Source: Candidatus Omnitrophota bacterium (lineage in GTDB: Bacteria > Omnitrophota > Gorgyraeia > Aquiviventales > Aquiviventaceae). Taken from it: DNA of 64,000 nt. The position numbers and the translations under genes are program-made. Numbering within the stretch: the first letter of the stretch is position 1; each line of letters starts with the position of its first letter. Shown here one piece after another: positions 2,741 through 45,344 of the stretch. The notes beneath the pieces are model-generated. The model searched no databases and had not been told where the DNA came from. It saw only the letters and a program-made list of their open reading frames with translations. The stretch covers positions 74,390 through 138,389 of the forward strand of contig JACQHR010000032.1 in NCBI GenBank assembly GCA_016198905.1, given 5' to 3'.

Positions 2741-3175
2741 CTACGAGAGGACAAACGCGGACAGCAAATACACAAACGGCAACGCGGCCATCCGTCGCTG
2801 CAGGCGCTCATCAGCCGTGACGAAGGGGATGCCGAGTTCCTGAGCGAGGGCTGCGAAGCTGGCATCGTAGAAGGACGCATCGTACGCGTCGGCGAGCTCG
2901 GAGGCGAGCATAGCTTGAGGCAAGGTCAACGGATGAATCGCAACGTTCAGGCTGAAGAACTCAGTAAGAATATCCAACGCGGTACGCCGAGGCATCGGCG
3001 GCCGCAGGTAACGCAGAGCATTTCCCAGTTCGTAGAGACTCAGTGTGGGGACGTGCAGCGTCCGCTTACCGCCGGCGTGTTCGAGCAGGAGTCGTTCGGC
3101 GCGCTGAAACTCAGGCTCCCGTGGCTTGACGTAGCACTTGAGGATGACCGAGGTGTCGACTACGACGTCTTCCAT
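2741..3175 (-). CDS. vapC: PIN-domain toxin VapC
   Basis: MEDVVVDTSVILK (N-terminal acidic D), later YDASF and a C-terminal TAD motif. Overlaps the upstream antitoxin gene by 16 nt. Confidence 0.85.
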   Translation of the reverse strand: MEDVVVDTSVILKCYVKPREPEFQRAERLLLEHAGGKRTLHVPTLSLYELGNALRYLRPPMPRRTALDILTEFFSLNVAIHPLTLPQAMLASELADAYDASFYDASFAALAQELGIPFVTADERLQRRMAALPFVYLLSAFVLS

Positions 3176-7953: not shown

Positions 7954-8933
7954 GCGAGCCGATCGTGAGCGTCGTCATCGCCACGCGCAACCGGGCCGCG
8001 ATGCTTAAAGAGGCCATCGCCAGCGTCGGCGCGCAGACGTATCAGGATTGGGAGCTCATCGTGGTGGATGACGGCTCGACCGATCAGACGAAGCGGGTCG
8101 CGCAGCAAGCGGCGAAGGACGATCCGCGCGTCCACTATCTTCGGCAGCCGGCCAGAGGCGGCGTGTCGAAAGCGCGCAATGCCGGCATCCACGCGGCGCG
8201 CGGGCGCTACATTGCGTTTCTCGATGACGATGACCAATTCGTTGCGGAGAAGCTCGCGACTCAAGTGGTGCACCTCGACCGTTCGCCCGAGGTGGGCTTC
8301 GTCTACGCGCAGAGCGAATGGGTGGATCGCCGCGGGACTTCGTTGGGAGTTCAGCCGACGGCGCCAGTGACTGATCTCAAGGGGCTGGTGGAGCACTGCG
8401 CGATCCCCCTGCAAACCGTCATGTGTCGTCGGGAACTGATCGAGCGGGTGGGCGGCTTCGATGAGCGGCTGTCGATCGGCGAAGACTACGACTTGTGGCT
8501 GCGGCTGGCGCGCATCACCCGGTTTGAGTTCGTCGCGCGTCCGCTGGTGCGCTACGGGGTGCATGGCGCCAATACGTGCAACGACAGCATCCGGCTCTAC
8601 GAGCAGCGGGCGATCATCCTGGCGCGCGTGCCGCTCGACCGTGCGCGGGGAATCACGTGGTGGTTCAAGCGCCGGCGCCTGGCGATCAACGCGTATCGGC
8701 TGGCGAGGCTGCACCACGAGGCGCGCGCTTTCGCGCAGGCGTCGGCGCATTTTGCCCGCGCGGTCGTCTACGACCCGATGGTCGGCCTGGCCATGGCCGA
8801 GCCGCGCCCTCGGGGGCTGGCGCGCCTGTGGGTGTCGCTGAAACCCTATCTGGCGATCGTGCTGCTCCTGATCGGGGTCAGTCCCCAAGCACGAAAAGTA
8901 GCGAGATCACCCGATTGGGGTCTGACCCCATGA
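7950..8933 (+). CDS. Glycosyltransferase family 2
   Basis: VSVVIATRNR, VVDDGSTDQT, AFLDDDD. ATGA start/stop overlap with the preceding gene. The track ORF's long N-terminal extension (from 7368) overlaps the previous GT2 out of frame. Confidence 0.9.
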   Translation: MSEPIVSVVIATRNRAAMLKEAIASVGAQTYQDWELIVVDDGSTDQTKRVAQQAAKDDPRVHYLRQPARGGVSKARNAGIHAARGRYIAFLDDDDQFVAEKLATQVVHLDRSPEVGFVYAQSEWVDRRGTSLGVQPTAPVTDLKGLVEHCAIPLQTVMCRRELIERVGGFDERLSIGEDYDLWLRLARITRFEFVARPLVRYGVHGANTCNDSIRLYEQRAIILARVPLDRARGITWWFKRRRLAINAYRLARLHHEARAFAQASAHFARAVVYDPMVGLAMAEPRPRGLARLWVSLKPYLAIVLLLIGVSPQARKVARSPDWGLTP

Positions 8934-11464
8934 GGATTGTGATTGTGGCACCAGAGGTGTTTCCGGTTCCACCGATCCGAGGCGGGGCGGTGGAGACCGT
9001 CATCGAGGAAATCTCCGCGCAGTTCCGTGACCACAAGGTAACCATTCTCGGCATTGCCGACGCGTCACTGCCGGTGCAAGAGACGAAGGAGCATCGGACA
9101 TATCGCCGTTGGAAGCGCACGGTCATTGATCGACTCTTGCTCTCGACGTGGAAGCTGCCGTTCAAACAGAGCAACTCGCCGTGGTACTACTGGCCCTACC
9201 AGCATTGGATCGCCAGGCAGGTGCAACGGCTGCGTCCCGACGTCGTGTGGGTGCACAGCCGCATCCAATTTGCGCCGGCGATTCGCCGCGCCGCCCCTCA
9301 CGCGCGGATGATCGTCAGCGTCCATCAACTGAGCACGCTGCGCGATGAGCGCGTCTGGCAGCAAGCGCGCGTCGCGTGTTGTGATGTGATCGCCGGTGTC
9401 AGCCAATTCATGATCGAGGCCATCGCTGCGCGGTATCCATGGACGCAACCCAAGACGCACGTGCTCTCAAACGGCGTTGACGTGACAGCCTATCAGCCGT
9501 GGTGGGCGCAGTCGGCCAGGCGCGAGCGGATGCGCCGCGAGCAGGGCTGGGGTGACGCGCCGGTGATCTTGTATGCCGGGCGGCTCGTCGAGCAAAAGGG
9601 CGTGCATGTGCTCGCCGATGCTTTCAAACAACTGGTAAGGGGTGAGGGGCGGGAGACAGGGGGCGCGGGATCCAACACGAAACCAATGCTGGTCATTGCC
9701 GGCGGCCACACGTACTCCGATGGGACAGAAACCGACTATATCAGGCAGTTGAAGCGCACGCTTGAGCCGCTGGGATCGCAGGTCGTCTGGCTGGGGTATC
9801 AACCGTCGAGCGCGCTGGTGAGCCTGTACGCGGCCAGCGACGTCGTCGTCGTCCCATCAATCAATCCGGAAGCGTTTTCCATGGTCACGGTTGAAGCGAT
9901 GGCCTCGGGTCTGCCGGTCGTTGCCTTCGCGCACGGCGGCCCAGCGGAGATCATTCGCCACGGCATCGATGGGTTCTTGGTGCCGGTCTCCCGCGGCGCG
10001 GAGGGTCTGGCCGAGGCGCTGCAAGCGTGCGTCAGCAACACCACCCTGCGGGAAGCCATCGGCCGCGAGGCCAGACGGACGGTAGAGGAGCGCTTTACGT
10101 GGCAGCGTGTGGCAGAGAGCTTCCTCAAATTGACTCAGGGACAAGGGACAGGGGACAGGGGGCGAGGGAATGCCCTTCCTACGCCCCGCGCCCCGCGCCC
10201 CGCGCCCCAGACACGCGCCGTCCCTATTCTTATTGCTGAGTCAGGATCAGGCTACGGAGGCAGCGCGAAATACCTCAGCGAGCTGGTGTCGCTGCTGGAT
10301 CGGCGACGCTTCCACGCGCAGGTGGTGGCGGCTGAAGAGGGGCCGTTCATTCGCAAGGTCAAAGAGCAGGGAGTGCCAGTAGCACTGAGGCCAAGTTGGA
10401 GATTCGCTTGGGGGCAGGGGGCGGGAGACGAGGGGCGGGGGAAGGGCCAGCACACAGCACTCAGCACGAACGTGAAACATGAAACGCGAAACGTGAAACG
10501 AACGTCGCATGTCCGGTTCGCGCTGGTTGCTGCTACACAGCTTTTGATCATGGTTCCAGCAATTGCCCTCTGGTTGAAGTGGCGGAGGATCCGGCTGGTG
10601 CATCTGAATAACGAGATCCTCTCGCACGTGCCGCTGGCGCTCGGAGCGAAACTCGCCGGCTGCCGCGTGGTGTGCCACCTGCACGGCTGGCGTCCGTTCA
10701 CGAGGCTGGAGCGCGCTGTGGCCGGTGTCGTTGATGAGTTCGTCTGCATTTCGGAGGCTGGCGCGCGGTACTTCGAATCGCAACTGCCGCATCGCCGGGT
10801 GGCCGCGATTCCCAACGGTATTCTGCTCAATGGTCAGTTGGACGGCCTTGACGTGAAACGAGCGCAGGTCCGTCGGCAGTTGGGGATCCAGCCCCATGAC
10901 GCGGTCATCGCCATCATCGGGCGCTTGGTGCCGTGGAAAGGCCAGGCAGTGTTCTTGAAGGCGTTGGCGGATGTCAGCCAGCGACACCCGGACGTGGTCG
11001 GCCTCATCGTGGGGCACGATGCCTCGCCAGGGCAGAGCTATCTGACACAGTTACAGTCGACTGCGCGTGAGCACGGCCTCGCTGAGCGTGGGCGCGTGCA
11101 CTTTGTCCCGTGGCTCGAGGACGTGTGGGGCATTTATGCCGCGGCGGACATCATCGTGCACGCTTCGACGCAGCCGGAGCCGTTCGGACTCGTGCTCATT
11201 GAAGCGATGGCGGCGGGCAAGCTCGTGATTGCCACGCGATCCGGTGGAGTCGTCGATATCGTCACGGATGGCCGGACAGGACTGCTGGTTGAGCCGGGCG
11301 ATCCGGATGGGCTGGCGCGCGCCATCACGCAGGTGGTGACTGATCCTTCGCGCGCCGCTGCGCTGGCTGAGGCCGGCCGGCAGCGCGCGCGAGACGTGTT
11401 CACCATGGAGCGCAACGCGCAGGCAGTCGCGCAGGTCTATCAGCGGCTGATGGTGTGCCGATGA
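8930..11464 (+). CDS. Double GT4 glycosyltransferase (two complete GT-B modules joined through element E3)
   Basis: Module 1: MRIVIVAPEVFPVPPIRGGAVE...VVPSINPEAFSMVTVEAMASGLPVVAF. Module 2: ILIAESGSGYGGSAKY...ASTQPEPFGLVLIEAMAAGKLVIATRSGG. ATGA overlap at 8930. Contains E2, E3 and E4 in frame. Confidence 0.85.
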   Translation: MRIVIVAPEVFPVPPIRGGAVETVIEEISAQFRDHKVTILGIADASLPVQETKEHRTYRRWKRTVIDRLLLSTWKLPFKQSNSPWYYWPYQHWIARQVQRLRPDVVWVHSRIQFAPAIRRAAPHARMIVSVHQLSTLRDERVWQQARVACCDVIAGVSQFMIEAIAARYPWTQPKTHVLSNGVDVTAYQPWWAQSARRERMRREQGWGDAPVILYAGRLVEQKGVHVLADAFKQLVRGEGRETGGAGSNTKPMLVIAGGHTYSDGTETDYIRQLKRTLEPLGSQVVWLGYQPSSALVSLYAASDVVVVPSINPEAFSMVTVEAMASGLPVVAFAHGGPAEIIRHGIDGFLVPVSRGAEGLAEALQACVSNTTLREAIGREARRTVEERFTWQRVAESFLKLTQGQGTGDRGRGNALPTPRAPRPAPQTRAVPILIAESGSGYGGSAKYLSELVSLLDRRRFHAQVVAAEEGPFIRKVKEQGVPVALRPSWRFAWGQGAGDEGRGKGQHTALSTNVKHETRNVKRTSHVRFALVAATQLLIMVPAIALWLKWRRIRLVHLNNEILSHVPLALGAKLAGCRVVCHLHGWRPFTRLERAVAGVVDEFVCISEAGARYFESQLPHRRVAAIPNGILLNGQLDGLDVKRAQVRRQLGIQPHDAVIAIIGRLVPWKGQAVFLKALADVSQRHPDVVGLIVGHDASPGQSYLTQLQSTAREHGLAERGRVHFVPWLEDVWGIYAAADIIVHASTQPEPFGLVLIEAMAAGKLVIATRSGGVVDIVTDGRTGLLVEPGDPDGLARAITQVVTDPSRAAALAEAGRQRARDVFTMERNAQAVAQVYQRLMVCR
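9637..9669 (+). repeat. E2: solo G-rich arm inside GT4 module 1
   Basis: AAGGGGTGAGGGGCGGGAGACAGGGGGCGCGGGA matches the left-arm consensus and is translated in frame as RGEGRETGGAG. No C-rich partner follows. Confidence 0.8.
10136..10208 (+). repeat. E3: G-arm/C-arm palindromic element fusing two GT4 cistrons
   Basis: Left CAGGGACAAGGGACAGGGGACAGGGGGCGAGGG, loop AATGCCCTTCCTA, right CGCCCCG x3 + CGCCCC. Translated as GQGTGDRGRGNALPTPRAPRPAP with no stop. Confidence 0.85.
10410..10504 (+). repeat. E4: chimeric three-block heptamer element inside GT4 module 2
   Basis: G-arm GGGGGCAGGGGGCGGGAGACGAGGGGCGGGGGAAGGG, then CAGCACA CAGCACT CAGCACG, then AACGTGA AACATGA AACGCGA AACGTGA AACGAAC (the E1-type GTGAAAC arm). 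In frame as GQGAGDEGRGKGQHTALSTNVKHETRNVKRT. Confidence 0.85.
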
Positions 11465-12957
11465 GCGTCGTCAACCAAACCGCAGCCCGCGCAGGCGCAC
11501 GCGCCATACCCCCGCTGCACACCGTGGTCGACCGCCGCATCTGGACGTTTGTCGCGCTCATCGGATTCCTCGGCTGGCTCGTCATGAAGGAAATCACGCT
11601 GCCCTCCGGTCTCATGGCGGCTTGTGCGGGGCTGGGATTGCTCGGGCTGTTCATGGTCAGCGTCCAGCGGCCGGAGCTGTCGCTGTACGTGCTCGTGGCA
11701 TACCTGCCGTTCAGCCGGCTCCTCGTCGGAGATTTCGGCACCGAAGCGTACGCCTTCAACCTCACGAACATCCTGACGCTGTGGGTCCTTAGCGCCTATG
11801 TGCTGCGTTGCATGTCGCAAGGCCGGCAGCCCTTCCAATCCGCCCCGATGAGTCGCCTCGTCCTGGCGTTCTGCGCGCTGAGCGGATTCTCGCTGCTGCA
11901 GGGAGGCTTTGCGTACGGCTCCTGGTACTTCTGGCATTACCTCACTCCGCTGAAGCAGTGGCTGACGCCGATCTTCTTTTACTTTCTGGCGCTCTGGGTG
12001 GTGCGGGATCGGAAAGTTCTCAAGACGGTCGTGGTGCTCATGATGGTCGCCGTCACGGTGGTAGCGCTCATGGCGATCCGGGACTATCTGAACAACTCGG
12101 GCAGCAGCCTCGAGAAATCCCGGGTCGGCGGGATCGCCGAGCAGCCCAACACGCTGGGGGCGTTCTTCGTGTACTACATGTTCTTGTTCGCCGGCTTCTT
12201 CCTGACCTATCGCAAGAAGTTCAAGGTGTGGGGGCTGCTCGTTCCCTTTCTGCTGTGTTTCCGCGGCATCATGGTGACATTTTCCCGCGGGGCCTATTTC
12301 GGATTCGCCGCCGGCGGCCTCGGAGCGTGTTGGCACCGCAATAAGGCGCTGTTTGTGGTCGCCGCCGCGCTGTTATGGTTTGCCGTCATGAATCCCTGGA
12401 TGCTGCCGAAGGGGATTCGGTATCGGATGGGGCAAACCGTCGTCAGCCACGGCAGCGACAACGCACCGGGCGACGCGCCGATCGAGGATACCTTGGAAGC
12501 CAGCGCCGGAAACCGCGTGCGCATTTGGCGGGCGACCATCGAGATGATCAAGGACCATCCGTGGTGGGGGGTGGGCTACGGGGCGTTTCCCGCCTACATC
12601 GGGGTGTACACCGGCGGGCACTTCGAGGCGGTCGATGCCCATAACACGTATTTGCTCCTTGCCGCCGAGTTGGGGATCCCAATACTGGTCGTGTTCTGCG
12701 TGGTGATCCTCGTGGCGTGGTATCACACCAGGCGACTCTACCTGGGGACCCACGACTTCGCTATGAAGGCCATCACCCTAGGTTTCCTCGCCGGGCTGGA
12801 AGGGCTCATTGTGGTGAACATGTTCGGCTCGCGGATGGATGACCAGGCGGTCAGCAGCTACTTTTGGATCTTGTGCGGCCTCATCATGCGCGGCGTGTTG
12901 ATCGAGCGGGAAGAGATGTTGGGGGCATGGGGCGCGAGACGTGGGGCGAGGGCATAG
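11461..12957 (+). CDS. O-antigen ligase / Wzy-like polytopic membrane protein (paralog 1)
   Basis: About 10 or more hydrophobic segments. Central GIMVTFSRGAYFGFA and periplasmic-loop ...HNTYLLLAAELGI (Wzy_C-like). ATGA overlap with the upstream gene. The C-terminal tail LGAWGARRGARA is encoded by the E5 left arm. Confidence 0.8.
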   Translation: MSVVNQTAARAGARAIPPLHTVVDRRIWTFVALIGFLGWLVMKEITLPSGLMAACAGLGLLGLFMVSVQRPELSLYVLVAYLPFSRLLVGDFGTEAYAFNLTNILTLWVLSAYVLRCMSQGRQPFQSAPMSRLVLAFCALSGFSLLQGGFAYGSWYFWHYLTPLKQWLTPIFFYFLALWVVRDRKVLKTVVVLMMVAVTVVALMAIRDYLNNSGSSLEKSRVGGIAEQPNTLGAFFVYYMFLFAGFFLTYRKKFKVWGLLVPFLLCFRGIMVTFSRGAYFGFAAGGLGACWHRNKALFVVAAALLWFAVMNPWMLPKGIRYRMGQTVVSHGSDNAPGDAPIEDTLEASAGNRVRIWRATIEMIKDHPWWGVGYGAFPAYIGVYTGGHFEAVDAHNTYLLLAAELGIPILVVFCVVILVAWYHTRRLYLGTHDFAMKAITLGFLAGLEGLIVVNMFGSRMDDQAVSSYFWILCGLIMRGVLIEREEMLGAWGARRGARA

Positions 12958-12997
12958 TCATATGCCAACCATACCCCCACCCCCCGCCCCCCGCCCC
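12919..12997 (+). repeat. E5: palindromic element with upstream stop and downstream start codon in its loop
   Basis: Left TTGGGGGCATGGGGCGCGAGACGTGGGGCGAGGG, loop CATAGTCATATGCCAACCATA (TAG 12955-57, ATG 12962), right CCCCCACCCCCCGCCCCCCGCCCC. Confidence 0.85.
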
Positions 12998-14344
12998 ATA
13001 CTTGGTTGTATCTTGAGTCAATTCCCGCGATACGATGAGGCGTTCATTCTGCGCGAGCTTGTCGCGTTGTCGCAGGACTCGCCGCGGCTCGTGATCTTCT
13101 CGCTGCGTCCGTGCCGCGATCGCGTGATCCACGAGCAGGCGAAAGCCCTGCAGCCGCAGACAGTCTACGCGCCCTTCGTGTGGTCATGGCAGGTCTGGCG
13201 CAGCCACGCGCATGTCCTTCAGCACAATCTGAGAGGATATCTTCGCGCGCTTGGATGGATCATCAGCCGGCATTGGCGGCATCCGGTGATTCTGGTGAAG
13301 ACGCTGGCATTTTTCCCAAAGACCGTGCACTTCGCGAGGCTGGCCCAACAGCGGGGCGTCACGCATGTGCATGCGTTTTGGGCGACGTACCCGGCGGCGG
13401 CGGCGATGATCATGCGTGAGCTGACCGGCATCCCATTTAGCATGTCCGGCCACGCGCATGATATTCACACGATCAATCCGACGCTGACCGAGAAGATGCA
13501 GCATGCGCGCTTTGTCGTGACCTGCACGCAGGCGAATCGTGACTATTTGTTATCGTTAGTCAATAGTCATGGGGCAAGGGGCGGGAGACAGGGGGCAGGG
13601 ACAACCAAAACTATTGTGGAAGGTTTTTCCACGCCCCCCGTCCCCCGCCCCCCGTCCCATGTTATGGTGAGCTACCACGGCGTCGATCTTTCCCGCTTCG
13701 CCGCGCGGCCGAAGGATCACGGGCCGGTGTGCCGGATCCTCGCGGTGGGCAGCCTGTTGCCGTGCAAAGGGTATGAGACGCTGATTGAGGGCTGCACGCG
13801 GCTGCGTGAGCGCGGCGCGGCGTTTCACGTGACCATCGCCGGCGGCGGGCCGCTCGAACGCGCGCTGCGCCAGCGGATCGCGAAGCATGCGCTTACGCAG
13901 CAGGTGACGATGACGGGCTTTGTCAGCCAGGAAACGGTCGCAGCGCTCTATCAGCAAGCGCACCTCGTGATCCTGCCCTTGGTGTCCAAGATCCATTGGG
14001 GCATCCCGAACGTCCTGATCGAAGCGCTGGCTACGAAGACGCCGGTCATCTGCTGCGATCTGCCGTCGATGCGCGAGCTGGTGGTGCACGGCGAAAGCGG
14101 CTGGATCATCCCTGAGAACGACCCCAACGCGTTAGCGACTTCAATCGTGACGCTCTGGAAAGACGCCGCGTTGCGGCAGCGGATCGCCGACGCAGGGTAT
14201 CAGCGCGTGGTCGAGCGGTTTTCGCTGGAGGAAACTGGACGAAAGCTACGAGAGATCTTTAGTCAGGGGCAGGGGGCGGGAGACAGGGGGCAGGTGCAGA
14301 CCGATTTTCCCGCGCCCCGCGCCCCGCGCCCCAAAGTTCCTTAA
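12962..14344 (+). CDS. Glycosyltransferase family 4
   Basis: GT-B C-domain: ...ILPLVSKIHWGIPNVLIEALATKTPVICCDLPSMRELV. Start ATG lies in the E5 loop (alternative GTG 12941). Contains E6 in frame, and E7 forms its C-terminal tail. Confidence 0.8.
   Translation: MPTIPPPPAPRPILGCILSQFPRYDEAFILRELVALSQDSPRLVIFSLRPCRDRVIHEQAKALQPQTVYAPFVWSWQVWRSHAHVLQHNLRGYLRALGWIISRHWRHPVILVKTLAFFPKTVHFARLAQQRGVTHVHAFWATYPAAAAMIMRELTGIPFSMSGHAHDIHTINPTLTEKMQHARFVVTCTQANRDYLLSLVNSHGARGGRQGAGTTKTIVEGFSTPPVPRPPSHVMVSYHGVDLSRFAARPKDHGPVCRILAVGSLLPCKGYETLIEGCTRLRERGAAFHVTIAGGGPLERALRQRIAKHALTQQVTMTGFVSQETVAALYQQAHLVILPLVSKIHWGIPNVLIEALATKTPVICCDLPSMRELVVHGESGWIIPENDPNALATSIVTLWKDAALRQRIADAGYQRVVERFSLEETGRKLREIFSQGQGAGDRGQVQTDFPAPRAPRPKVP
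13568..13661 (+). repeat. E6: palindromic element in frame inside GT4
   Basis: Left CATGGGGCAAGGGGCGGGAGACAGGGGGCAGGG, 30-nt loop, right ACGCCCCCCGTCCCCCGCCCCCCGTCCCATG. Translated as HGARGGRQGAGTTKTIVEGFSTPPVPRPPSH. Confidence 0.85.
14264..14332 (+). repeat. E7: palindromic element forming the C-terminal tail of GT4
   Basis: Left CAGGGGCAGGGGGCGGGAGACAGGGGGCAGG, loop TGCAGACCGATTTTCC, right CGCGCCCCGCGCCCCGCGCCCC. Translated as GQGAGDRGQVQTDFPAPRAPRP, followed by the TAATG junction at 14342-14346. Confidence 0.85.
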
Positions 14345-15204
14345 TGGCCATTCTGCGCACAGTCCTCAGCGATATCACCTATCATGCGAGGCGATTGACA
14401 CCTGGCGATGGAGAAGGATTGCGCATCCTGATGTACCATCGCGTCACCGATGCGCATCCCGGGAATCGGCTGTGCGTGCCGGTGGCGCGGTTTGCGGATC
14501 AGATGCGGTGGCTGGCGGAGCAGGGGTACCGCACAATCTCATTCGCTGAGGCGGTGGAGTTAGTGAGGGGGCAGGGGGCAGGGGGCGGGAGACGGGGGAA
14601 TAGCCGACAAGCAGAATCTGCGGCATTCCCTCGCCCCGCGCCCCGCGCCCCGCGCCCCAAACTGATTGTCCTGACATTTGATGACGGCTTCGAGGATAAT
14701 TTTCTCTACGCCTATCGCGCGCTGGCGCAGTACGGCTTCACCGGCTGCTTCTTCGTGCCAAGTGCCTTTATCGCGTCCGGACAAACCGGGCATGAGGCGG
14801 TCGATCAACCGATGAGCTGGGCGCAATTGAGTGAGCTCGCACGGGAAGGCCACGAAGTAGGAGCGCATTCGATCAGCCACGCGAAGCTCACACACATTGA
14901 TCCGGTGCAGATGCGCGAGGAAGTGCGAGGATCGAAAGAAGCGATCGAGCAAGGACTGCAGCAGCCCGTGAGATTCTTCTGTTACCCGTCGGGTGACTAT
15001 AATGCGGCCGTGAAACAGGCGGTGCGCGACAGCGGCTACGACGGGGCGTGCACCGTGGAGCCGGGCGCGAACCGTTCCGGGGCTGATCCCTTTGCGTTGA
15101 CACGCACGGAGATCAGCGCGTTTGATTCGCTGTGGGATTTTGAGAAGAAGATCGCGGGCGCGTTTGATTGGATGCATCGCGTCGTCCAATGGACGAAACG
15201 ATGA
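14344..15204 (+). CDS. Polysaccharide deacetylase (CE4/NodB-type), paralog 1, with in-frame E8 insertion
   Basis: LTFDDGFEDN, GAHSISH and YPSGDYN motifs. TAATG 1-nt overlap with the upstream gene. Confidence 0.85.
   Translation: MAILRTVLSDITYHARRLTPGDGEGLRILMYHRVTDAHPGNRLCVPVARFADQMRWLAEQGYRTISFAEAVELVRGQGAGGGRRGNSRQAESAAFPRPAPRAPRPKLIVLTFDDGFEDNFLYAYRALAQYGFTGCFFVPSAFIASGQTGHEAVDQPMSWAQLSELAREGHEVGAHSISHAKLTHIDPVQMREEVRGSKEAIEQGLQQPVRFFCYPSGDYNAAVKQAVRDSGYDGACTVEPGANRSGADPFALTRTEISAFDSLWDFEKKIAGAFDWMHRVVQWTKR
14565..14658 (+). repeat. E8: palindromic element in frame inside the deacetylase
   Basis: Left GAGGGGGCAGGGGGCAGGGGGCGGGAGACGGGGG, loop AATAGCCGACAAGCAGAATCTGCGGCATT, right CCCTCGCCCCGCGCCCCGCGCCCCGCGCCCC. 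Translated as GQGAGGGRRGNSRQAESAAFPRPAPRAPRP. Confidence 0.9.
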
Positions 15205-16466
15205 TCAGACATCAGACCTCAGACATCAGACCACAGTCGGACTCAAGACCCAAGACCCAAGACCCAACAGGTGCATTTTCAGCCCCGAGTCTTGAGTCCC
15301 GAGTCTTGAGTCCCGAGTCTCGGGTCCCAGTGAAGGTCATATTCATCATTTGGTCGCTTGGATTAGGCGGCGCAGAACAGGTTGTGATCCGGTTAGCAGC
15401 CGGGCTTGATCGTCGCCGATTCGCGCCGATCATTTGCTGCATGAACGAGCCCGGGCCGTTTGCCACGCAAGCGATCAGCCGCGGCATCGAGGTGATTGCG
15501 CTGCATAAGCGCGGCGCGATCGATCTGGGCATGCTGATCAGGCTCACGCGCGTGATGCGGCAGCGTCGGCCCGGCATCGTGCACACGCATCTGTGGGGCG
15601 CCAGCTTCTGGGGGCGTCTCGCGGCGCGTCTGGCGCGCGTCCCGGTAGTCATCGTCCATGAGCACGGCATGCAGCCCTATCGCGGGGCCTTCCATTTTTT
15701 CTGCGATCGATGGTTAGCGCGGGTCACGTCGCGCATCCTGTTTGCCTCGCAGCACGTCCTGCAGATCTACCGGGCAAAGACGGCCGTCGCGGAATCCAAG
15801 TGCATGGTGATTCCGAATGGTGTCGCGGTGTTACGGCTGCCGGATCGAATCGCGGCTAGGCGCGCGCGCGGATGGTCGCCGGACGATCAAGTGATCCTCA
15901 GCGTCGGGCGGCTCTCGCCGGAAAAAGGCTATGAGGATTTGCTGAAGGCCTTCGCGCTCATCGCTTCCCGCGCGCCGCACGCGCGGCTGGTGCTCGTGGG
16001 AGATGGCGCGCAACGCGCGGCGCTTCAGACGCTGCAGGCGCAGTCAGGGCTCAATGGCCGCGTGACGTTTGCGGGCCGGCAAGAGGATGTCACGGGATGG
16101 CTGGCCGCGGCGGATCTCTACGTGCAGCCCTCGCATCGAGAAGGGCTGCCGCTGGCGGTGCTGGAGGCGATGGCCGCCGGCGTGCCGGTGGTGGCCACCG
16201 ACGTCGGCGATCTGCGCTACGTCATCACCGAGGGACGCACCGGCTACCTCGTGCCGGCCCGGCAGCCGGACACGCTGGCTGCGCGATTGGTCGACGTCCT
16301 GGAACATCCCGAGCAACAGCCGCGCATCGCCGAGGCCGCGCGAGCGCTCGTGCGCACGCGCTTCTCCGACGAACAGATGATCCGCGCCATTGAGCGCGTG
16401 TATGAGGACGAGCTGTCGTGTTGGGGCAAGGGGCAGGAGACGGGGGGCGGGGGAGGGAACCGCTGA
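15201..16466 (+). CDS. Glycosyltransferase family 4
   Basis: VKVIFIIWSLGLGGAEQVVIRLAAGL... and QPSHREGLPLAVLEAMAAGVPVVATDVGD. ATGA overlap at 15201. The first ~43 codons are E9 heptamer repeats, so the true start could be later (e.g. GTG 15331). Confidence 0.8.
   Translation: MIRHQTSDIRPQSDSRPKTQDPTGAFSAPSLESRVLSPESRVPVKVIFIIWSLGLGGAEQVVIRLAAGLDRRRFAPIICCMNEPGPFATQAISRGIEVIALHKRGAIDLGMLIRLTRVMRQRRPGIVHTHLWGASFWGRLAARLARVPVVIVHEHGMQPYRGAFHFFCDRWLARVTSRILFASQHVLQIYRAKTAVAESKCMVIPNGVAVLRLPDRIAARRARGWSPDDQVILSVGRLSPEKGYEDLLKAFALIASRAPHARLVLVGDGAQRAALQTLQAQSGLNGRVTFAGRQEDVTGWLAAADLYVQPSHREGLPLAVLEAMAAGVPVVATDVGDLRYVITEGRTGYLVPARQPDTLAARLVDVLEHPEQQPRIAEAARALVRTRFSDEQMIRAIERVYEDELSCWGKGQETGGGGGNR
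15205..15328 (+). repeat. E9: variant heptamer element (different unit sequences)
   Basis: TCAGACA TCAGACC TCAGACA TCAGACC; then ACTCAAG ACCCAAG ACCCAAG ACCC; loop GGTGCATTTTCAG; then GAGTCTT GAGTCCC GAGTCTT GAGTCCC GAGTCTC GGGTCCC. GGACTCAAGAC is complementary to GTCTTGAGTCC. Confidence 0.8.
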
Positions 16467-16495
16467 ATGCGGAACGCGGAGTGCGGAATCGAGGA
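16422..16495 (+). repeat. E10: G-rich arm followed by a TGCGGAA heptamer block (no C-arm)
   Basis: TGGGGCAAGGGGCAGGAGACGGGGGGCGGGGGAGGG ... TGCGGAA CGCGGAG TGCGGAA TCGAGGA. The GT4 stop TGA 16464-66 lies between the two blocks. Confidence 0.8.
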
Positions 16496-16540
16496 AGCAA
16501 TTGAGACCTAACGCGAAGCGAACGTCACGTTGGGGCGGCG

Positions 16541-18025
16541 ATGAGGAGTGACGCGGTCTTGCCGGCAGCGATGGTGAGGCGCCTGCTGCCCGAGGTGGAT
16601 GAGCGGGCGTGGATGTTCGTGCTCGCGATCGGCGCCTTCGCCGTGTTGGGGCTCAAAGAGATGCCGTTATCGGCACCCCTGGTCTTGGGTCTCTTCGCTG
16701 CCGGTGTGGTCGGGTTGATTGCGGCCGGCTGGCTGGGACCCGAAGCACCGCTGTACGCGCTCATCGCGTACTTGCCCTTCAGCGGGCTGCTGGCCGGTGG
16801 CGCGTCCATCCCGTTTCTCAACCTGACGAATTTGCTTATCCTACTCATCGTGGTCAGCCACATTTGGCGGCAGCGTCGGAATGAGCTGCAGGTCTTGACG
16901 TCTGCGCCGATGAATGCGGTCATCGCGCTTTTCGCCGCGCTGGCGGTTCTGTCGTGGATGCGCGCCGGATGGATGTATGGCGGCTGGTACGCGTCGACGC
17001 ATGCCGTGGCTCTCTTGCGTTGGCTGCGCCCGATGGCGTTCTACTTCGTGGCGCTGTGGGCCGTGCGGGATGCGCGCGCACTAAAGACCGTGCTTGCGCT
17101 CATCGCGGTGGCGGTGACGGTCGTCGCGCTGATGGCGCTGTGGGAGTATCTCGATCGCGCCGGCAGCACCATCGAGCGCTCGCGCGTGCAGGGAATCGCC
17201 GGCGAAGCCAACCGCATGGGGGCGTTCTTCGTGACGTACATGTTCCTGTTCCTTGGCTATTTCTTCGTGACACCGCTGCGTCGCTACGGGTGGCTGATGC
17301 TCGTGCCGTTTCTCTTGTGCGTGCGCGGCATCATGGTGACCTTCTCGCGCGGGGCGCATGTGGCGTTCGCTGCGGGGGTGCTCGTCGCTTGTTGGATGCG
17401 CAGCAAGTGGCTCTTCGTGGTTGCGGCCGCCGCCGCGGCATTCATCATCACGCATCCGGCCCTGCTGCCGGGAGGATTTCGCACCCGCATCGAGCAGACC
17501 ATTCGTCCTGGTCAGCGACTCGACCTGGACGCCGGCACCTCGCAGGAGCTCTCGCGGCAATTGGAGCCCAGCGTCGGGCGACGGGTTGAAGCATGGAACG
17601 GCGGCTTGGCGATGGTGCGCGCGCATCCCTGGGTTGGCGTCGGGTTCGGAGGATTCCGGCGGTTCATTCCCCACTACACGCAGGGCCGAGTGAGCTCCAT
17701 GGCGGCGCACAACACGTACCTGTGGCTGGCGTCGGAGATGGGCATCCCCACGCTGCTGGTGTTTCTGCTGTTTCTCGACCTGCTGGCGTACCACACGGTG
17801 TGGCTGTATCGGCACAGCCAGGATGTCTGGCTGCGGGCTCTTGGCCTTGGCGTGTTGGCCGGCGCCGCGGCGCTGTCTGTGGCCAACGGTTTCAGCGAGT
17901 GCCTCGATTCCTCCGAGGAGGTCGTGGGTTATTTCTGGATCCTCTGCGCGCTCGTCATGAGAGGCGTCCTGCTTGAAAAACAACAGGCTGGGGCAAGGGG
18001 CGTGAGACAGGGGGCGGGGGAATAG
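16541..18025 (+). CDS. O-antigen ligase / Wzy-like polytopic membrane protein (paralog 2)
   Basis: Collinear with 11461..12957 (e.g. GIMVTFSRGAHVAFAAG, AHNTYLWLASEMGIP). The tail GARGVRQGAGE is encoded by the E11 left arm. Confidence 0.8.
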   Translation: MRSDAVLPAAMVRRLLPEVDERAWMFVLAIGAFAVLGLKEMPLSAPLVLGLFAAGVVGLIAAGWLGPEAPLYALIAYLPFSGLLAGGASIPFLNLTNLLILLIVVSHIWRQRRNELQVLTSAPMNAVIALFAALAVLSWMRAGWMYGGWYASTHAVALLRWLRPMAFYFVALWAVRDARALKTVLALIAVAVTVVALMALWEYLDRAGSTIERSRVQGIAGEANRMGAFFVTYMFLFLGYFFVTPLRRYGWLMLVPFLLCVRGIMVTFSRGAHVAFAAGVLVACWMRSKWLFVVAAAAAAFIITHPALLPGGFRTRIEQTIRPGQRLDLDAGTSQELSRQLEPSVGRRVEAWNGGLAMVRAHPWVGVGFGGFRRFIPHYTQGRVSSMAAHNTYLWLASEMGIPTLLVFLLFLDLLAYHTVWLYRHSQDVWLRALGLGVLAGAAALSVANGFSECLDSSEEVVGYFWILCALVMRGVLLEKQQAGARGVRQGAGE

Positions 18026-18437
18026 CAATGCCTATGACGTCTGCAGCGATCACAACCTTCAAAGACCTTCGCGTCTGGCAGGAAGGCATCCAGTTGGTCA
18101 AGGAGATCTATGCCCTCTGCGTCAAATTGCCGAAGGAAGAACTCTACGGCTTAGCGAGTCAGATGAAGCGCGCGGCGGTGTCGGTTCCATCCAACGTAGC
18201 AGAAGGCCATGCTCGAAAACACCGCGCCGAGTACAGACAGTACGTGTATATTGCGATCGGCTCGCTTGCGGAACTCGAGACGCACGTGCTCATTGCTAAG
18301 GAGTTGAACTTGTCTAATGGTGATGAGCTGACCCCGGTCCTTACACGCATTGACCGTTTGCGAGGGATGTTGCTGACGCTCGGGAGACGACTCGGATGAC
18401 GCCGTCCCCTCGCCCCTCGCCCCTCGCCCCTCGCCCC
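17989..18437 (+). repeat. E11: G-arm/C-arm palindromic cassette carrying a second four-helix-bundle gene
   Basis: Left TGGGGCAAGGGGCGTGAGACAGGGGGCGGGGG (17989-18020). Right (CCCCTCG)x4 + CCCCA (18406-18437). About 25 of 32 positions are complementary by hand alignment. Confidence 0.9.
18028..18399 (+). CDS. Four-helix-bundle protein (23S rRNA intervening-sequence protein family), second, divergent copy
   Basis: FKDLRVWQEGIQLVKEIY...QMKRAAVSVPSNVAEGHARKH..EYRQYVYIAIGSLAELETH. Starts 2 nt after the ligase TAG and has an ATGA overlap with the next GT4. Confidence 0.85.
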   Translation: MPMTSAAITTFKDLRVWQEGIQLVKEIYALCVKLPKEELYGLASQMKRAAVSVPSNVAEGHARKHRAEYRQYVYIAIGSLAELETHVLIAKELNLSNGDELTPVLTRIDRLRGMLLTLGRRLG

Positions 18438-20717
18438 ATTCGCGTGATGTTCGTGATCTGGTCGCTCGGCCTCGGCGGAGCGGAGCAGGCGGTGATCCGG
18501 CTGGCCGCGGGCCTTCGGCGCGAAGGGTTCGAGCCGTTGATCTGCTGTCTCAACGAGCCGGGTCCCTTCGCTGTGCAAGCGCAGGCCGCCGGCGTGCCCG
18601 TCGTGGCGCTGCACAAACGGTGGCGCTATGACGCGCGCGTGCTCTGGCGCTTGATGCGGTTGATGCGGCAGTGGCATCCGGACGTCGTGCACACGCATCT
18701 GTGGGGCGGCAACGCGTGGGGGCGGACGGCGGCCTGGCTGGTGGGTGTTCCGGTCATCGTCACGAGCGAGCGGAATCTGGATCCTTGGAAACGCTGGTAC
18801 TATTTTGTGATCGACCGCGTGCTCGCAGCGCGGACCACGACGTTGCTGGCCGTCTCCGAGTCCGTGCGGGCGTTCTACGAGCAGCACGGGGTCGGCCGCG
18901 GCCGCTGGCAAGTCTGCTACAACGGCGTCGATATCGCCGACGTAACACCCCGGCAGCGAGGAGCCGTGTTCGCGCAACTGGGCGCGCAGCATGGCGAGCC
19001 GGTCGTCGGCTTCATCGGACGCTTGGCTTCGGCAAAGGCTCCGGATGTGTTCGTCGAGGCGGTCGCACAGGCGCGCCGAACACTCCCTTCGCTGAAAGCG
19101 CTCATCGTCGGCGACGGGCCGCTGCGCAGCGAGGTTGAAGCCTTGGCGCGTCGATTGGGATTGGATGGGCATCTCGTGGTGACCGGCGTGCGCGAGGATA
19201 TCCCGGAGCTGCTGGCGGGGATGGACGCGCTGATGGTGTCGTCCGAGCGCGAGGGGCTCTCCATGGCGATGTTGGAGGCCATGGCGGCAGGAGTCCCGGT
19301 TATCGCGACTCGAGTAGGAGGCACTCCTGAACTCATCGAGCCGGGGATGACCGGACTGCTTGCGCCTCCAGGCGCGCCCGACGCATTGGCGCGCCAGTTG
19401 GTGGCACTCCTGACCAATCCCGCGCACGCGCAGGCCATTCGCGATGCGGCCCGCGCGCGAGTGGCGAAGGATTTTTCCATGCAGCGCGTGGTGGCGACGC
19501 ATGCAGCAGTGTACCGCCGCGGCCTCAAGCAGGCCAACCGTGCAGGACTCAGTGATCGCGTCAAAGAGGCGGCGGCATCGCTTCCCATCGCTCACCGCGC
19601 TCGCCTCCGCGTCATGCATGTCATCGACGATCTCGGACTCGGAGGCGCGCAGCGGCAGCTCGTGGAGCTCGTCAAGGCGTTCCCGCGGGATCGCTATGAG
19701 CTGCACGTTGTGAGTCTCTCGACGACGAAGACGGACTACGCGGAGGCGCTCCACGCAGCGGAGATTCGCCTGACGCAAATCCCGCAGGCCGGCAAATGGG
19801 ATGGCCGTTGTTTTTCGACGCTCTCCACGCTGATCAAAACCGAGAAGCCTTCCATCGTCCACACGTGGCTCTTTACCGCCGACCTCTATGGCCGCATGGC
19901 GGCGTGGGTGGCGCATGTGCCGGTCATCATCAGCGCGGTGCGCAGTGTGGAGCCGGATAAGCCCGCGCACTACGTCGTGGTGGATCGCGTCCTGCGCAAC
20001 ATCACCAGTGCCTTCACCGTCAATGCGCGCGCGATTGGCGAGGTGCTGACGGCGCGCGAGCATGTGCCGACGGAGAAGATTCATACGATCTATAACGGGC
20101 TCGATCTGCGCGCCCTGGATCCATCCCGCGTGAATGGAGCGATTCGGCGCGCCATCGCCGTCGGCGCCGACGTCCCCCTGATCGGGATCGTCGGGCGTCT
20201 AGCGCCGGTGAAGGATCACGCCACGTTTCTGCGCGCGGCAGTGCGCGTGCATCGTGAAGCGCCACAGGCGCGGTTTCTCATCGTCGGCAACGGTTTGCTT
20301 CACGGCGAGCTCGAGCAGTTGAGCCAATCATTGGGCCTGAGCGATGTCGTTCGCTTTCTCGAGAGCCAATCCAACGTAGCCGAGGTGTTCGCCGCGCTCG
20401 ATGTCGTCGTCGTGTCCTCCCTCTATGAAGGCTGCTGCAACGTGATCCTCGAAGCGATGGCGATGGGCAAGCCCGTGATCGCCACAGCCGTCGGGGGCAA
20501 TCCTGAGCTCATCAGCGACGGGCAAACCGGGCTGCTCGTGCCCGTGGGCGATGATGCGAAGCTGGCCGAGGCGATGGTGAGCCTGCTGCGTGATCCGCAG
20601 CGCGCGCAGGCGATGGGCCGCTCGGGGCGAGCGCGCGTGGAGTGCGACTTCGCCATCGAGCGGATGGTCGTCGCAACCGATCGCGTCTATCAGAAACTGT
20701 TGAGTCGCGCCCCATGA
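18396..20717 (+). CDS. Double GT4 glycosyltransferase (natural tandem fusion, no element at the joint)
   Basis: Module 1: IRVMFVIWSLGLGGAEQAVIRLAAGL...SSEREGLSMAMLEAMAAGVPVIATRVGG. Module 2: LRVMHVIDDLGLGGAQRQL...SSLYEGCCNVILEAMAMGKPVIATAVGG. The N-terminal MTPSPRPSPLAPRP is the E11 right arm (alternative ATG 18447). Confidence 0.85.
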   Translation: MTPSPRPSPLAPRPIRVMFVIWSLGLGGAEQAVIRLAAGLRREGFEPLICCLNEPGPFAVQAQAAGVPVVALHKRWRYDARVLWRLMRLMRQWHPDVVHTHLWGGNAWGRTAAWLVGVPVIVTSERNLDPWKRWYYFVIDRVLAARTTTLLAVSESVRAFYEQHGVGRGRWQVCYNGVDIADVTPRQRGAVFAQLGAQHGEPVVGFIGRLASAKAPDVFVEAVAQARRTLPSLKALIVGDGPLRSEVEALARRLGLDGHLVVTGVREDIPELLAGMDALMVSSEREGLSMAMLEAMAAGVPVIATRVGGTPELIEPGMTGLLAPPGAPDALARQLVALLTNPAHAQAIRDAARARVAKDFSMQRVVATHAAVYRRGLKQANRAGLSDRVKEAAASLPIAHRARLRVMHVIDDLGLGGAQRQLVELVKAFPRDRYELHVVSLSTTKTDYAEALHAAEIRLTQIPQAGKWDGRCFSTLSTLIKTEKPSIVHTWLFTADLYGRMAAWVAHVPVIISAVRSVEPDKPAHYVVVDRVLRNITSAFTVNARAIGEVLTAREHVPTEKIHTIYNGLDLRALDPSRVNGAIRRAIAVGADVPLIGIVGRLAPVKDHATFLRAAVRVHREAPQARFLIVGNGLLHGELEQLSQSLGLSDVVRFLESQSNVAEVFAALDVVVVSSLYEGCCNVILEAMAMGKPVIATAVGGNPELISDGQTGLLVPVGDDAKLAEAMVSLLRDPQRAQAMGRSGRARVECDFAIERMVVATDRVYQKLLSRAP

Positions 20718-26383: not shown

Positions 26384-26456
26384 GACGCGGGGCAGGAAAA
26401 ACCAAATTTGGTATTGAGGATTTTCCCACGCCCCGTGCCCCCGTCTCCCGCCCCTT
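26366..26456 (+). repeat. E12: palindromic element at the giant-protein / deacetylase junction
   Basis: Left AAGGGGCAAGGGGCATGAGACGCGGGGCAGG. The loop has a GGAAAA...TTTTCC clamp and an internal CCAAATTTGG palindrome. Right CACGCCCCGTGCCCCCGTCTCCCGCCCCTT. Confidence 0.85.
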
Positions 26457-27265: not shown

Positions 27266-27341
27266 AGGGAGCGTGGGGCGTGGGGCGTGGGGCGTGGGAA
27301 AACCGCTTTTCCCTCGCCCCCCATCTCCTGTCCCTTGCCCC
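27266..27341 (+). repeat. E13: palindromic element at the deacetylase / GT2 junction
   Basis: Left AGGGA + (GCGTGGG)x4. Inner clamp GGGAAAA-CCGC-TTTTCCC (27296-27313). Right CTCGCCCCCCATCTCCTGTCCCTTGCCCC, which is close to the reverse complement of the E10-type G-arm. Confidence 0.85.
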
Positions 27342-27349
27342 AATCTGTG

Positions 27350-36417: not shown

Positions 36418-36631
36418 GCCCAGCATGTGGACATGACGAGGAGGTGCAAGTCCTCTGAGGGAGCAGGTCGCAGCGACCTCAAGCGAACCGCAAGGCGACG
36501 ACCGTGAGGTCGGCGCTGAAAGAAGCGGGGAGCGAAGCCGCGCGTCGACGAACAGGAACCGGATACGAGGCGAAGCCGGCCAGCGAATTCTGGGGACAAT
36601 ACGGAATTCTGTTTTGGGGCGGTCGCTTGAG

Positions 36632-43671: not shown

Positions 43672-44559
43672 TTACGACTGCGGAAGCATCAATCCAAACT
43701 GGGGCGGGCTGGTGTGCGCAGCATTGAGGATATCCGCGAACGGATATGTGGGATAGCAGCTTTTGATGTGCGCCAGTTCAGTCGGGCTGGCCGAGGCGAA
43801 GACAGGCAGCGTATGAACGAACAGCGTTTCCAAGTCGCTTGGTGAAAACTTCAGCTTCTCTGCGAACGGGGCCGGTGAAGGTTTCTTGCCATAAAAGAGT
43901 TGGTAGGCCGCATGCGAGGCGGCGTGCTGCTCAGTGTCCCGGATGTTCAGGTGTCTGGCCACGGAAGGATTGCTGTTGGCGGCCGTATATGTTTTAAGCC
44001 CCCCCAATGGTTGGAGCTGGAGAAATTCGTAAAGAATCTGATGCTTCGGGTTGAAGCATGCAACCAGTTCATCAGTCGGGGTCGAGCTACGGAGATAGTC
44101 GAACATGATTTTGAACAATCTCAGCGTGAAGAGCAGCTTCTTCGCGTGGAATAGGGTGAATACCTTTTGGCCGAAGAGCCGGCCATCTAAGGCCAGCATG
44201 GACACTTCAGCCACCCGAAGGCCTTGACGACGTAGTACGTCTACCTCGGTCTTGTACGCCTCATCCATGGGTAAGCCTAGAGGGGAATCTTCGACGACGG
44301 AGACCGTTCCAATAATACCCAAGCGACGGTGCACGGCAATGAAGGTCGCCGTTGTGGGAAGCGCATGGTACAAAGACAGCTTCAGCCGCGCAGGATTCGG
44401 TTTGACGTAGTTGCGTTTCAGGTACTCGGTATAGACAAGCTGACTGGCAATCTTGAACTCCTCAACGGTTTTCACGATGCGGAACTCGACCGGACGAAGA
44501 AATTGAGGGACCGTGTCATAGAGTCGGCCAAGCAGTGAAATCGAAGGACCGGTGGTCAT
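43672..44559 (-). CDS. N-acyl amino acid synthase-like acyltransferase (FeeM/NasY-like; PEP-CTERM/exosortase-associated type)
   Basis: FRIVKTVEEFKIASQLVYTEYLKRNYV...GTVSVVEDSPLGLPMDE...VAEVSMLAL resembles the LuxI-like GNAT N-acyl amino acid synthases. Assignment is from pattern memory only. Confidence 0.55.
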   Translation of the reverse strand: MTTGPSISLLGRLYDTVPQFLRPVEFRIVKTVEEFKIASQLVYTEYLKRNYVKPNPARLKLSLYHALPTTATFIAVHRRLGIIGTVSVVEDSPLGLPMDEAYKTEVDVLRRQGLRVAEVSMLALDGRLFGQKVFTLFHAKKLLFTLRLFKIMFDYLRSSTPTDELVACFNPKHQILYEFLQLQPLGGLKTYTAANSNPSVARHLNIRDTEQHAASHAAYQLFYGKKPSPAPFAEKLKFSPSDLETLFVHTLPVFASASPTELAHIKSCYPTYPFADILNAAHTSPPQFGLMLPQS

Positions 44560-44561
44560 AA

Positions 44562-44990
44562 TTACTGCAAATACCTCTTCAGCAGCTCTGCCGCAACGAA
44601 ATGGCAGTACTGAGCAAAGGTTGTTTCATTGCGGGCAGGAGAAAATGTCACCCCGACGGCGTAGTCTTTACCTCCACGCTTCTGACGACACCAACCGATC
44701 TGCCCAAAGAGCATGAGCGGTTCAGGTCGATCCAGCATGGCGAGGACAATCTGACACGGACTGGCCACAGCGATCATTTGTGAGATGGAGAACTCGATGC
44801 CAGCGCCACTGATCGTCATTGTCTTGCTGGAGCCGGTAATCTGTTCATCGCCGGATCGAATAGTGTAGGACAATGTGAGGGTGAGCGGCAGGCGTTCCGC
44901 TGCTCGCTGATCGACGGACAAGACATGCATTTCCGTCGCGTCCTGCCGAATGGCGACGTCATGCTGCACTGTGGTTTCTCGTTTCCGCAT
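44562..44990 (-). CDS. PilZ-domain (c-di-GMP-binding) protein
   Basis: QRAAER (RxxxR) followed by TISGAGIEF (D/N-x-S-x-x-G-like). 142 aa. First gene of the minus-strand operon. Confidence 0.65.
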   Translation of the reverse strand: MRKRETTVQHDVAIRQDATEMHVLSVDQRAAERLPLTLTLSYTIRSGDEQITGSSKTMTISGAGIEFSISQMIAVASPCQIVLAMLDRPEPLMLFGQIGWCRQKRGGKDYAVGVTFSPARNETTFAQYCHFVAAELLKRYLQ

Positions 44991-45344
44991 TCAGCACTCG
45001 CTCGGTTCGTTAATCTGTTTAAACAACCAGACGAACTATACCATATAGAGCACGATATTATCAAGATTTCAACTACTTAAATAATCATTACACTTTTGAT
45101 GTATCTTTTTGAAATTCAGAGTGTTGTTTTATGTACGTTTCGATGGCTCATTTCACCACTCTACACGTTGTAACTGCCCTGATTTTTGGACACTATGTCT
45201 AAAAAAGCAGACATCGGTATGATGTTCTGGATTTGTGGTACAGCGCATAGTGTTTATATAGGTATTTTTATAGTTATTTATCGTAACATATTTAACAGTA
45301 GCATGTTATGAGCAGTACGGATAATGTAGCCACTTACTAGGAGT

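Follow-up and report, generated by a model that had tools for sequence, protein, structure and literature searches.

We analysed a 64,000-nucleotide stretch of the genome of Candidatus Omnitrophota bacterium (GenBank assembly GCA_016198905.1, contig JACQHR010000032.1, forward-strand positions 74,390 to 138,389; hereafter the window, numbered from its first letter), and in particular an element, E4, that lies inside a glycosyltransferase gene (10410-10504, + strand). E4 consists of three period-7 blocks, namely a 37-nt G-rich arm (the G-arm), a CAGCACN array and a GTGAAAC-type array. It is probably (we would put this at roughly 0.6) a degenerate composite scar, assembled from outer arms that belonged to two different members of a single cassette family. 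In its intact form, a cassette of this family comprises a small PF05635 gene between two complementary arms of about 30 nt, with four to five heptamer units each, that close a long stem. E4 would have retained a G-type 5' arm and a GTGAAAC 3' arm of the type found in a cassette of the same window (E1), both in sense orientation and with the CAGCACN array between them, the cargo and the partner arms having been lost. Having neither, E4 is unable to close the stem, and as a nucleic-acid element it is most likely inactive.

Results

Sequence and make-up of E4

The three blocks of E4 are as follows (TRF, Tandem Repeats Finder).

10410-10446, + strand: left block, GGGGGCAGGGGGCGGGAGACGAGGGGCGGGGGAAGGG; a full-length G-arm, oriented like the 5' arm of a PF05635 cassette.
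10448-10468, + strand: middle block, CAGCACA CAGCACT CAGCACG (TRF array at 10448-10467, period 7, 2.9 copies, 92% matches); an orphan array.
10469-10504, + strand: right block, AACGTGAAACATGAAACGCGAAACGTGAAACGAACG; a GTGAAAC-type array that matches the 3' arm of an E1-type cassette.

The left block reads as five heptamer units (GGGGCAG, GGGGCGG, GAGACGA, GGGGCGG and GGGAA..) and aligns nearly base for base with the 33-nt G-arm consensus GGGGCAGGGGGCGGGAGACnGGGGGCGnGGGAA, including the GGGAGAC unit and the terminal GGGAA. The G-arm of the cassette at 17990 is likewise a match. The consensus is not a random tract: its units have a fixed order, and it recurs at about ten other sites of the window and in other phyla. 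Within the right block TRF delimits an array at 10469-10500 (AACGTGAAACATGAAACGCGAAACGTGAAACG; period 7, 4.6 copies, 84% matches), and alignment places the block in register with both E1 arms over four units and the outer end GAAACGAA, in the orientation of the E1 3' arm; the unit variants are shared with the E1 arms as well as the outer end. The gap between the two arms, about 22 nt, corresponds to the CAGCACN block. A (GAAACNN)3 pattern had no further copy in the 110 loci fetched for comparison. These alignments, together with the TRF calls on the last two blocks, bear out the sequence-only reading of this DNA, which had described three concatenated heptamer arrays in which the G-arm and GTGAAAC families meet in one element.

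When compared with an intact cassette, E4 has the unit count and the arm sequences of bona fide members, and the complementary arms, the stem and the PF05635 open reading frame (ORF) are all absent. Neither a C-arm, nor a CGTTTCA arm, nor PF05635 cargo is present in E4, and there is no inverted repeat in 10380-10570. E4 folds no better than its shuffles (z +1.40 and +1.72 on the two strands, to be compared with z -2 to -7 for complete elements), in agreement with the earlier remark that its two ends are not complementary. One fold had suggested that the CAGCACN block pairs with host sequence at 10513-10532, as a nested hairpin round the GTGAAAC array; this pairing was rejected (overall z +0.65, no seed-6 inverted repeat, and a best ungapped complement of 14/25 that is reached by 16% of random sites).

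Host gene and coding context

The gene that contains E4 is the following.

8576-11464, + strand: host ORF, 962 aa, two fused GT4 glycosyltransferase modules (Pfam).

Module 2 extends from about 10217 to 11464, and E4 is located in its N-terminal (Glyco_trans_4_4) part. Codons 10412-10504 (93 nt) are translated in frame into 31 residues, about 66-96 of module 2, in the context ...WRFAW GQGAGDEGRGKGQHTALSTNVKHETRNVKRT SHVRF...; this peptide and its position in the N-terminal domain of the second GT4 module had been read correctly from the start, the translation being an exact match and the domain being assigned by Pfam. Alignment of the homologs places E4 after a conserved WRFPW motif, in a hypervariable loop of 0 to about 40 residues. 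In an AlphaFold2 (AF2) model built on the homolog alignment (mean predicted local distance difference test score, pLDDT, 88.5), the sole segment below 50 is residues 67-93, that is E4, between a strand and a long helix (90-122), and E4 is predicted to form a disordered, low-complexity surface loop.

A pure (GTGAAAC)n array contains a TGA in every frame within three units. In the right block of E4, the one unit whose TGA would be in frame reads GCGAAAC, so that codon 10487-10489 is CGA (Arg); the remaining three TGAs fall in other frames. Both the 93-nt length and this CGA in place of TGA fit what would be expected of a translated sequence held open by selection.

Gene-bearing cassettes in the window

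Both arm types represented in E4 flank PF05635 genes in the same window, in two complete cassettes.

1273-1776, + strand: E1 cassette; (CGTTTCA)x4.4 arm at 1273-1303, PF05635 gene at 1312-1758, (AACGTGA)x4.6 arm at 1745-1776.
17990-18439, + strand: G/C-type cassette; G-arm at 17990-18025, PF05635 gene at 18028-18399, (CCCCTCG)x4.6 C-arm at 18404-18439.

PF05635 is the S23p, or 23S rRNA intervening-sequence protein, family of four-helix bundles, to which the Avd protein of diversity-generating retroelements (DGRs) also belongs. The E1 gene encodes 148 aa and matches this family (23S_rRNA_IVP, four-helix-bundle) with an E value of 1.9e-33, and the E1 arms close the minimum free energy (MFE) fold (z -4.0). 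The gene at 18028-18399 matches with an E value of 1.5e-34, and the arms of 17990-18439 pair in the MFE and centroid folds alike. According to tblastn, PF05635-like coding sequence is found in the window only at 1312-1755 and 18049-18378. The G-arm lies 5' of the PF05635 gene in each of the four G-type cassettes (4/4).

At the heptamer elements Rfam gave only sub-threshold matches to generic hairpins (miRNA precursors), and the window contains no rRNA. At 36498-36612 (+ strand) Rfam further reported group II intron domains D1-D4 (RF02001, 44 bits, exceeding the gathering score), which places a retroelement in the same window as the Avd-family genes.

The cassette family beyond the window

Metagenome contigs were scanned with a PF05635 alignment, which gave 80 loci, and the 68 loci with at least 160 nt on both sides were used for the counts. 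Period-7 arrays are present in 86 of the 136 PF05635 flanks, as against 6 of 113 control windows, and periods 5, 6 and 9-12 are not enriched. An inverted repeat links both flanks in 53/68 loci (5/199 for shuffled pairings). The median number of units per array is 4.1, the distance to the ORF is about 20 nt, and the heptamer differs from cassette to cassette (GGGATTA, GCTAGTC, GTGAAGC, GGGGTCA and others). In all two-armed loci (34/34) the consensus units of the two arms are reverse-complementary, 15 exactly, 13 with one mismatch and six with two. Since 0/34 intact cassettes have mismatched arms, the arm combination of E4 is, to judge from these sequences, not a normal element type, and the cargo gene flanked by different arms that had been given as an example does not correspond to the ordinary state of such an element.

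In three metagenome-assembled genome (MAG) loci with close PF05635 homologs on contigs of greater length (L024, L027 and L029), a G-type arm ends just before the ATG and the complementary arm follows just after the stop codon; housekeeping genes adjoin these cassettes closely on both sides (yggS-like/proC and udg/priA). Inside the upstream yggS-like gene of two of these loci (L024 2366-2875; L029 2582-2870, with a G-arm and a C-arm in L029), there are further heptamer arm pairs with a spacing of about 230 nt, which may be decayed cassettes in a housekeeping gene. In a scan of GTDB representative genomes, MAGs of Omnitrophota and Planctomycetota were among those with the same arm-loop-C-arm hairpin. 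For most of the close PF05635 homologs (P0122-P0240) the contig is shorter than 1.5 kb, a sign that assemblies may break at the cassettes. One protein, P0121, which carries the name Candidatus Omnitrophica, is 100% identical to that of the window.

The layout is also found in finished cyanobacterial plasmids (loci L113-L119). Of the eight that were checked, five (Nostoc punctiforme, N. edaphicum, Calothrix brevissima, Stanieria and Anabaena sp. 90) have clear inverted heptamer pairs around a gene annotated as 'four helix bundle protein' or 'S23 ribosomal protein', and Nostoc PCC 7120 accounts for two further cases, in which at least one side bears an array. These are the classic organisms for short tandemly repeated repetitive (STRR) sequences. 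In Anabaena sp. 90 the gene is flanked by cas6 and cas4 and preceded by about 260 nt of GACAGGT/GACAGGG repeats.

Period-7 arrays and elements without cargo

The window contains 15 period-7 arrays, as against 0.23 expected from dinucleotide shuffles, and periods 5, 6 and 8-12 show no excess. The three E4 blocks are counted among these 15 arrays, all of which are confined to the first 27 kb, that is to a polysaccharide cluster (GT2, GT4, Wzy and deacetylase genes). The GTGAAAC pattern has 14 matches in the window (4.0 expected), the strong ones all in E1 and E4, and the G-arm motif 25 (11.6 expected), six of them exact. Besides E4 and the two cassettes, the following elements were delimited.

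9636-9672, + strand: solo G-arm, in frame in GT4 module 1.
10137-10210, + strand: E3 hairpin, a cargo-less G-type arm/loop/C-arm element, in-frame linker that joins GT4 module 1 to module 2 (+ strand, -39.5 kcal/mol; - strand, -51.8 kcal/mol).
12920-12998, + strand: cargo-less hairpin of 79 nt at the Wzy/glycosyltransferase junction; its loop gives a TAG stop and a new ATG.
13570-13658, + strand: cargo-less hairpin, in frame inside a glycosyltransferase gene (z -4.4 on +, -7.2 on -).
14265-14334, + strand: cargo-less hairpin at the 3' end of a glycosyltransferase gene.
14563-14660, + strand: cargo-less hairpin inside a deacetylase ORF (z -5.1 on +, -5.6 on -).
15203-15328, + strand: composite element, an orphan (ATCAGAC)x4 array at 15203-15236 and, behind it, a hairpin of (GACCCAA)n and (GAGTCTT..)n arms (z -4.2 on +, -6.5 on -).
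16420-16496, + strand: mixed element; its G-arm precedes a (GAATGCG)n array that is unrelated to it, no partner arm.
26366-26456, + strand: cargo-less hairpin, GGGAGAC unit in both arms.
27267-27345, - strand: cargo-less hairpin in inverted orientation, the signature G-arm being on the minus strand.

Because the E1 and 17990 arms bracket PF05635 genes and close folds, the G/C hairpins look like cargo-less derivatives of cassettes with the order arm, PF05635 gene, complementary arm. Besides E4, the window has a second mixed element, at 16420-16496. The earlier claim that the heptamer blocks are modular and can recombine is upheld as far as modularity is concerned, composite or orphan arrays recurring at 16420-16496 and 15203-15328; that the blocks actively recombine is a conjecture.

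Four of the hairpins (10137-10210, 12920-12998, 13570-13658 and 15239-15328) are 10-20 kcal/mol more stable as minus-strand RNA. Where their arms are mismatched, the sense strand has A.C and the antisense strand G.U, a consistent bias towards transitions between the arms. Elsewhere in the window, the region 44000-46000 has a low GC content (0.51 vs about 0.61) and includes a 12-nt AT-rich tandem repeat at 45253-45281.

Orthologous loci

Evidence that such elements are inserted comes from the hairpin at 12920-12998. In an orthologous cluster (L112, 4690-4790) the Wzy gene and the next glycosyltransferase gene overlap and no element is present; in the window the hairpin occupies this junction. 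Its G-arm is read as a new tail of Wzy (GAWGARRGARA*), its loop CATAGTCATATG is the source of both the TAG stop and an in-frame ATG, and its C-arm is read as MPTIPPPPAPRP, which precedes the conserved ILGCILSQFPRYDEAF. The cassette at 17990 has the same stop/start arrangement (AATAGCAATG).

The loop that harbours E4 carries other heptamer elements in orthologs. A 49% identical ortholog from an organism of 51% GC (L002) has a different heptamer hairpin, (GAAGTAC)n...(ATACTTC)n, in this loop, and another locus (L111) has a decayed heptamer hairpin there, which points to a permissive site that was colonised repeatedly by such elements. In a 57% identical ortholog (L003), only a short sequence of the form G-rich...GAAACG, GGGGTCAGCAGGAAGGACG...CGTTTCGAAACG, is found at the E4 position.

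Other observations concern the same clusters. The two GT4 modules form one ORF in the window and in L003 (700-800), and they are separate genes in L111 and L112; at the GT4 inter-module junction occupied by E3, L112 has an (AGTTTCA)n/(TGAAACY)n hairpin (1997-2100). The solo G-arm at 9636-9672 has a counterpart in L003 (260-295), a G-rich heptamer array at the same protein position, and this site is either an old insertion or a recurrent one. A PIN-domain gene adjoins glycosyltransferase genes both in the window (2741-3175, - strand) and in L002 (2351-3015), where it is paired with a ribbon-helix-helix (RHH) gene.

Discussion

The composition of E4 is best explained if it is what remains of two cassettes. 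It had been suggested that E4 is the scar of nested or adjacent insertions followed by a deletion that removed a cargo gene; a PF05635 gene is a candidate for this cargo, since both arm types flank such genes, and the order of events is our inference. Two histories would lead to the present sequence. Two adjacent or nested elements may have undergone an internal deletion between the inner edges of the G-arm and of the GTGAAAC arm; alternatively, a hybrid between two cassettes may have formed and lost its cargo later. In either case, E4 would have survived because the surface loop of the GT4 N-terminal domain in which it is located is hypervariable and disordered, and selection would have kept its reading frame open. 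We infer that the cassettes are or were mobile and, by analogy with the intervening sequence of Coxiella, that their stems may be RNase III substrates.

Several observations weigh against a composite scar of mobile cassettes. Inspection revealed no target-site duplication at any element boundary, and no transposase was found, so that mobility is deduced solely from the distribution of the elements and from one filled-versus-empty junction. The CAGCACN array has no further copy in the window or in the 110 fetched loci, which leaves the middle block unexplained. Neither an E4-less nor a cargo-bearing allele was seen among metagenome contigs with a flank-anchored, variable-gap pattern. The G-arm pattern used outside the window fixes 21 of the 33 consensus positions, and only the remaining positions are independent. 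Finally, the L003 loop bears a marginal resemblance to E4, with a score reached by 47/2000 shuffles (p about 0.02); we did not retain it as a homolog on this basis, and the resemblance means that the E4 composite may be old, or may have partly grown in situ.

Repeat-driven phase variation is established in surface-polysaccharide glycosyltransferase genes. E4, which lies within a glycosyltransferase gene of a polysaccharide cluster, might accordingly be a contingency locus of this kind, in which slippage by one heptamer (7 nt) would shift the frame, switch GT4 module 2 off and vary the surface polysaccharide. The number of heptamers does vary among Coxiella strains (in the intervening-sequence arm; PMC4990558) and among Xanthomonas species, and as in the contingency loci of Haemophilus and Neisseria the tandem repeat unit is not a multiple of three and sits inside a surface-polysaccharide glycosyltransferase gene. 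In contrast to these loci, however, the E4 units are few and imperfect (2.9 units in one tract; 4.6 units at 84% matches in the other) and the arrays would derive from cassette arms; moreover, similar arrays flank PF05635 genes in housekeeping operons (yggS-proC, udg-priA) and sit in intergenic junctions. We thus regard a switch of this type as improbable.

Growth of the arrays by local slippage from an ancestral loop, no insertion being involved, is a similarly unlikely origin. The loop is hypervariable, and the short G-rich sequence of L003 stands at the same place. However, the G-arm has the unit order and the end that are fixed in its family, as at the other window sites and in other phyla, and the right block agrees with the E1 arms in its register, its unit variants and its outer end, features that slippage alone would not yield.

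It might also be argued that the G-arm, once freed of its C-arm, folds as an RNA or DNA G-quadruplex (G4) and modulates translation of the GT4 gene or replication. The G4 motif (at least four G-runs of at least three, with short loops; regular-expression match) indeed covers 10410-10446 on the + (sense) strand, and all 14 motifs of the 64-kb window, seven per strand, are inside heptamer elements (e.g. 9639-9669, 10410-10446, 13571-13600, 18406-18437); G4 formation in vitro is documented for the G-rich heptamer repeats of Xanthomonas and Nostoc (PMC4692102). Yet arms of the same family that have no G-runs (GTGAAAC, GAAGTAC, GCTAGTC) share the length and the layout, so that G4 formation is not the defining feature of the family, and we give a functional G4 in E4 little credence.

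It is highly improbable that the MAG assembler created E4 by joining or collapsing repeats: although PF05635 homologs are often on very short contigs and the sole independent contig (L001, an identical Logan contig) begins at 10572, downstream of E4 and behind a Nextera adapter, the two flanks of E4 are parts of one GT4 domain, read in a single frame and arranged as in the homologs, the in-frame CGA in place of TGA fits a translated sequence, and the three blocks differ in sequence and thus offer no shared repeat for an assembler jump.

A composite scar of two cassettes remains our preferred explanation of E4, and the family to which these cassettes would belong has counterparts among known systems. 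The 23S rRNA intervening sequence of Coxiella burnetii contains an S23p ORF and a 28-bp terminal stem, has tandem GACAGAT heptamers that vary by strain, and is excised by RNase III (PMC4990558). The window cassettes resemble such S23p-ORF intervening sequences (Coxiella burnetii, Leptospira; PMC4990558), which are regarded as selfish and possibly once mobile (PMC4990558), in their PF05635 cargo, in a stem of about 28-30 bp round the ORF and in the tandem heptamers of the arm. They differ in that they lie between or inside protein genes of operons and not in helix 45 of 23S rRNA; E4 itself has neither an ORF nor complementary arms, and is inside the GT4 coding sequence. Apart from the Coxiella intervening sequence, a general link between heptamer arms and PF05635 genes is not stated in the literature that was searched, which mostly excluded subscription papers.

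The resemblance to STRR and G-rich heptamer repeats is also close. For Xanthomonas and Nostoc, the literature describes G-rich repeats that form G4, are sometimes inverted and have no known role (PMC4692102). Like the window arrays, repeats of this class have 7-nt units, typically about four per array, are mostly located between co-oriented ORFs and sometimes occur as inverted pairs, and their G-rich versions fit G4 motifs (PMC4692102). The window arrays differ from STRR sequences in their host, an Omnitrophota MAG, and in their units (GGGGCNN, GTGAAAC and CAGCACN, not the canonical STRR1-3); the G-arm has a fixed order of five units and is not a homogeneous tract, and several copies are read in frame as protein. 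The presence of many short, cargo-less inverted-repeat derivatives beside longer, gene-carrying relatives, together with composite and decayed copies, is reminiscent of MITEs (miniature inverted-repeat transposable elements) and of repetitive extragenic palindromes and bacterial interspersed mosaic elements (REP/BIME). Unlike in these systems, the arms consist of periodic heptamer arrays, E4 lacks any inverted repeat, and there was no sign of a transposase, a REP-associated tyrosine transposase (RAYT) or a target-site duplication.

A broader and rather doubtful proposal, for which we claim much less than for the origin of E4, is that the STRR-type heptamer repeats of cyanobacteria, Omnitrophota, Planctomycetota and other phyla form the terminal arms of a single, widely distributed family of cassettes whose cargo is an Avd-like PF05635 protein. 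In its strongest form, the pentameric PF05635 protein would recognise the roughly five 7-nt units of each arm and aid the spread of the cassette or RNA processing. The cargo-less hairpins would be MITE-like offspring, suited to operon junctions because their loop supplies a stop and a start, and hairpins would have been taken up repeatedly as protein linkers and loops. If all of this were true, E4 would be direct evidence of joining between arms of different cassettes.

To our knowledge, records of 7-nt repeat arrays (STRR sequences and the G4-type repeats of Nostoc and Xanthomonas) go back decades, and no origin or role is known for them. As inverted arms of PF05635 genes, heptamer arrays have the same layout as the RNase III-cut 23S rRNA intervening sequences, and this finding ties together three little-understood subjects, namely the STRR repeats, elements of the intervening-sequence type and those relatives of the DGR protein Avd that are free-standing. 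Such elements can be absorbed into coding sequence as disordered loops or linkers, even fusing or bridging glycosyltransferase modules, and gene callers read through them, which matters for the annotation of MAGs. E4 itself would be a fossil; the more interesting result is the occurrence across phyla of heptamer-armed four-helix-bundle cassettes, a family that is widespread and little described.

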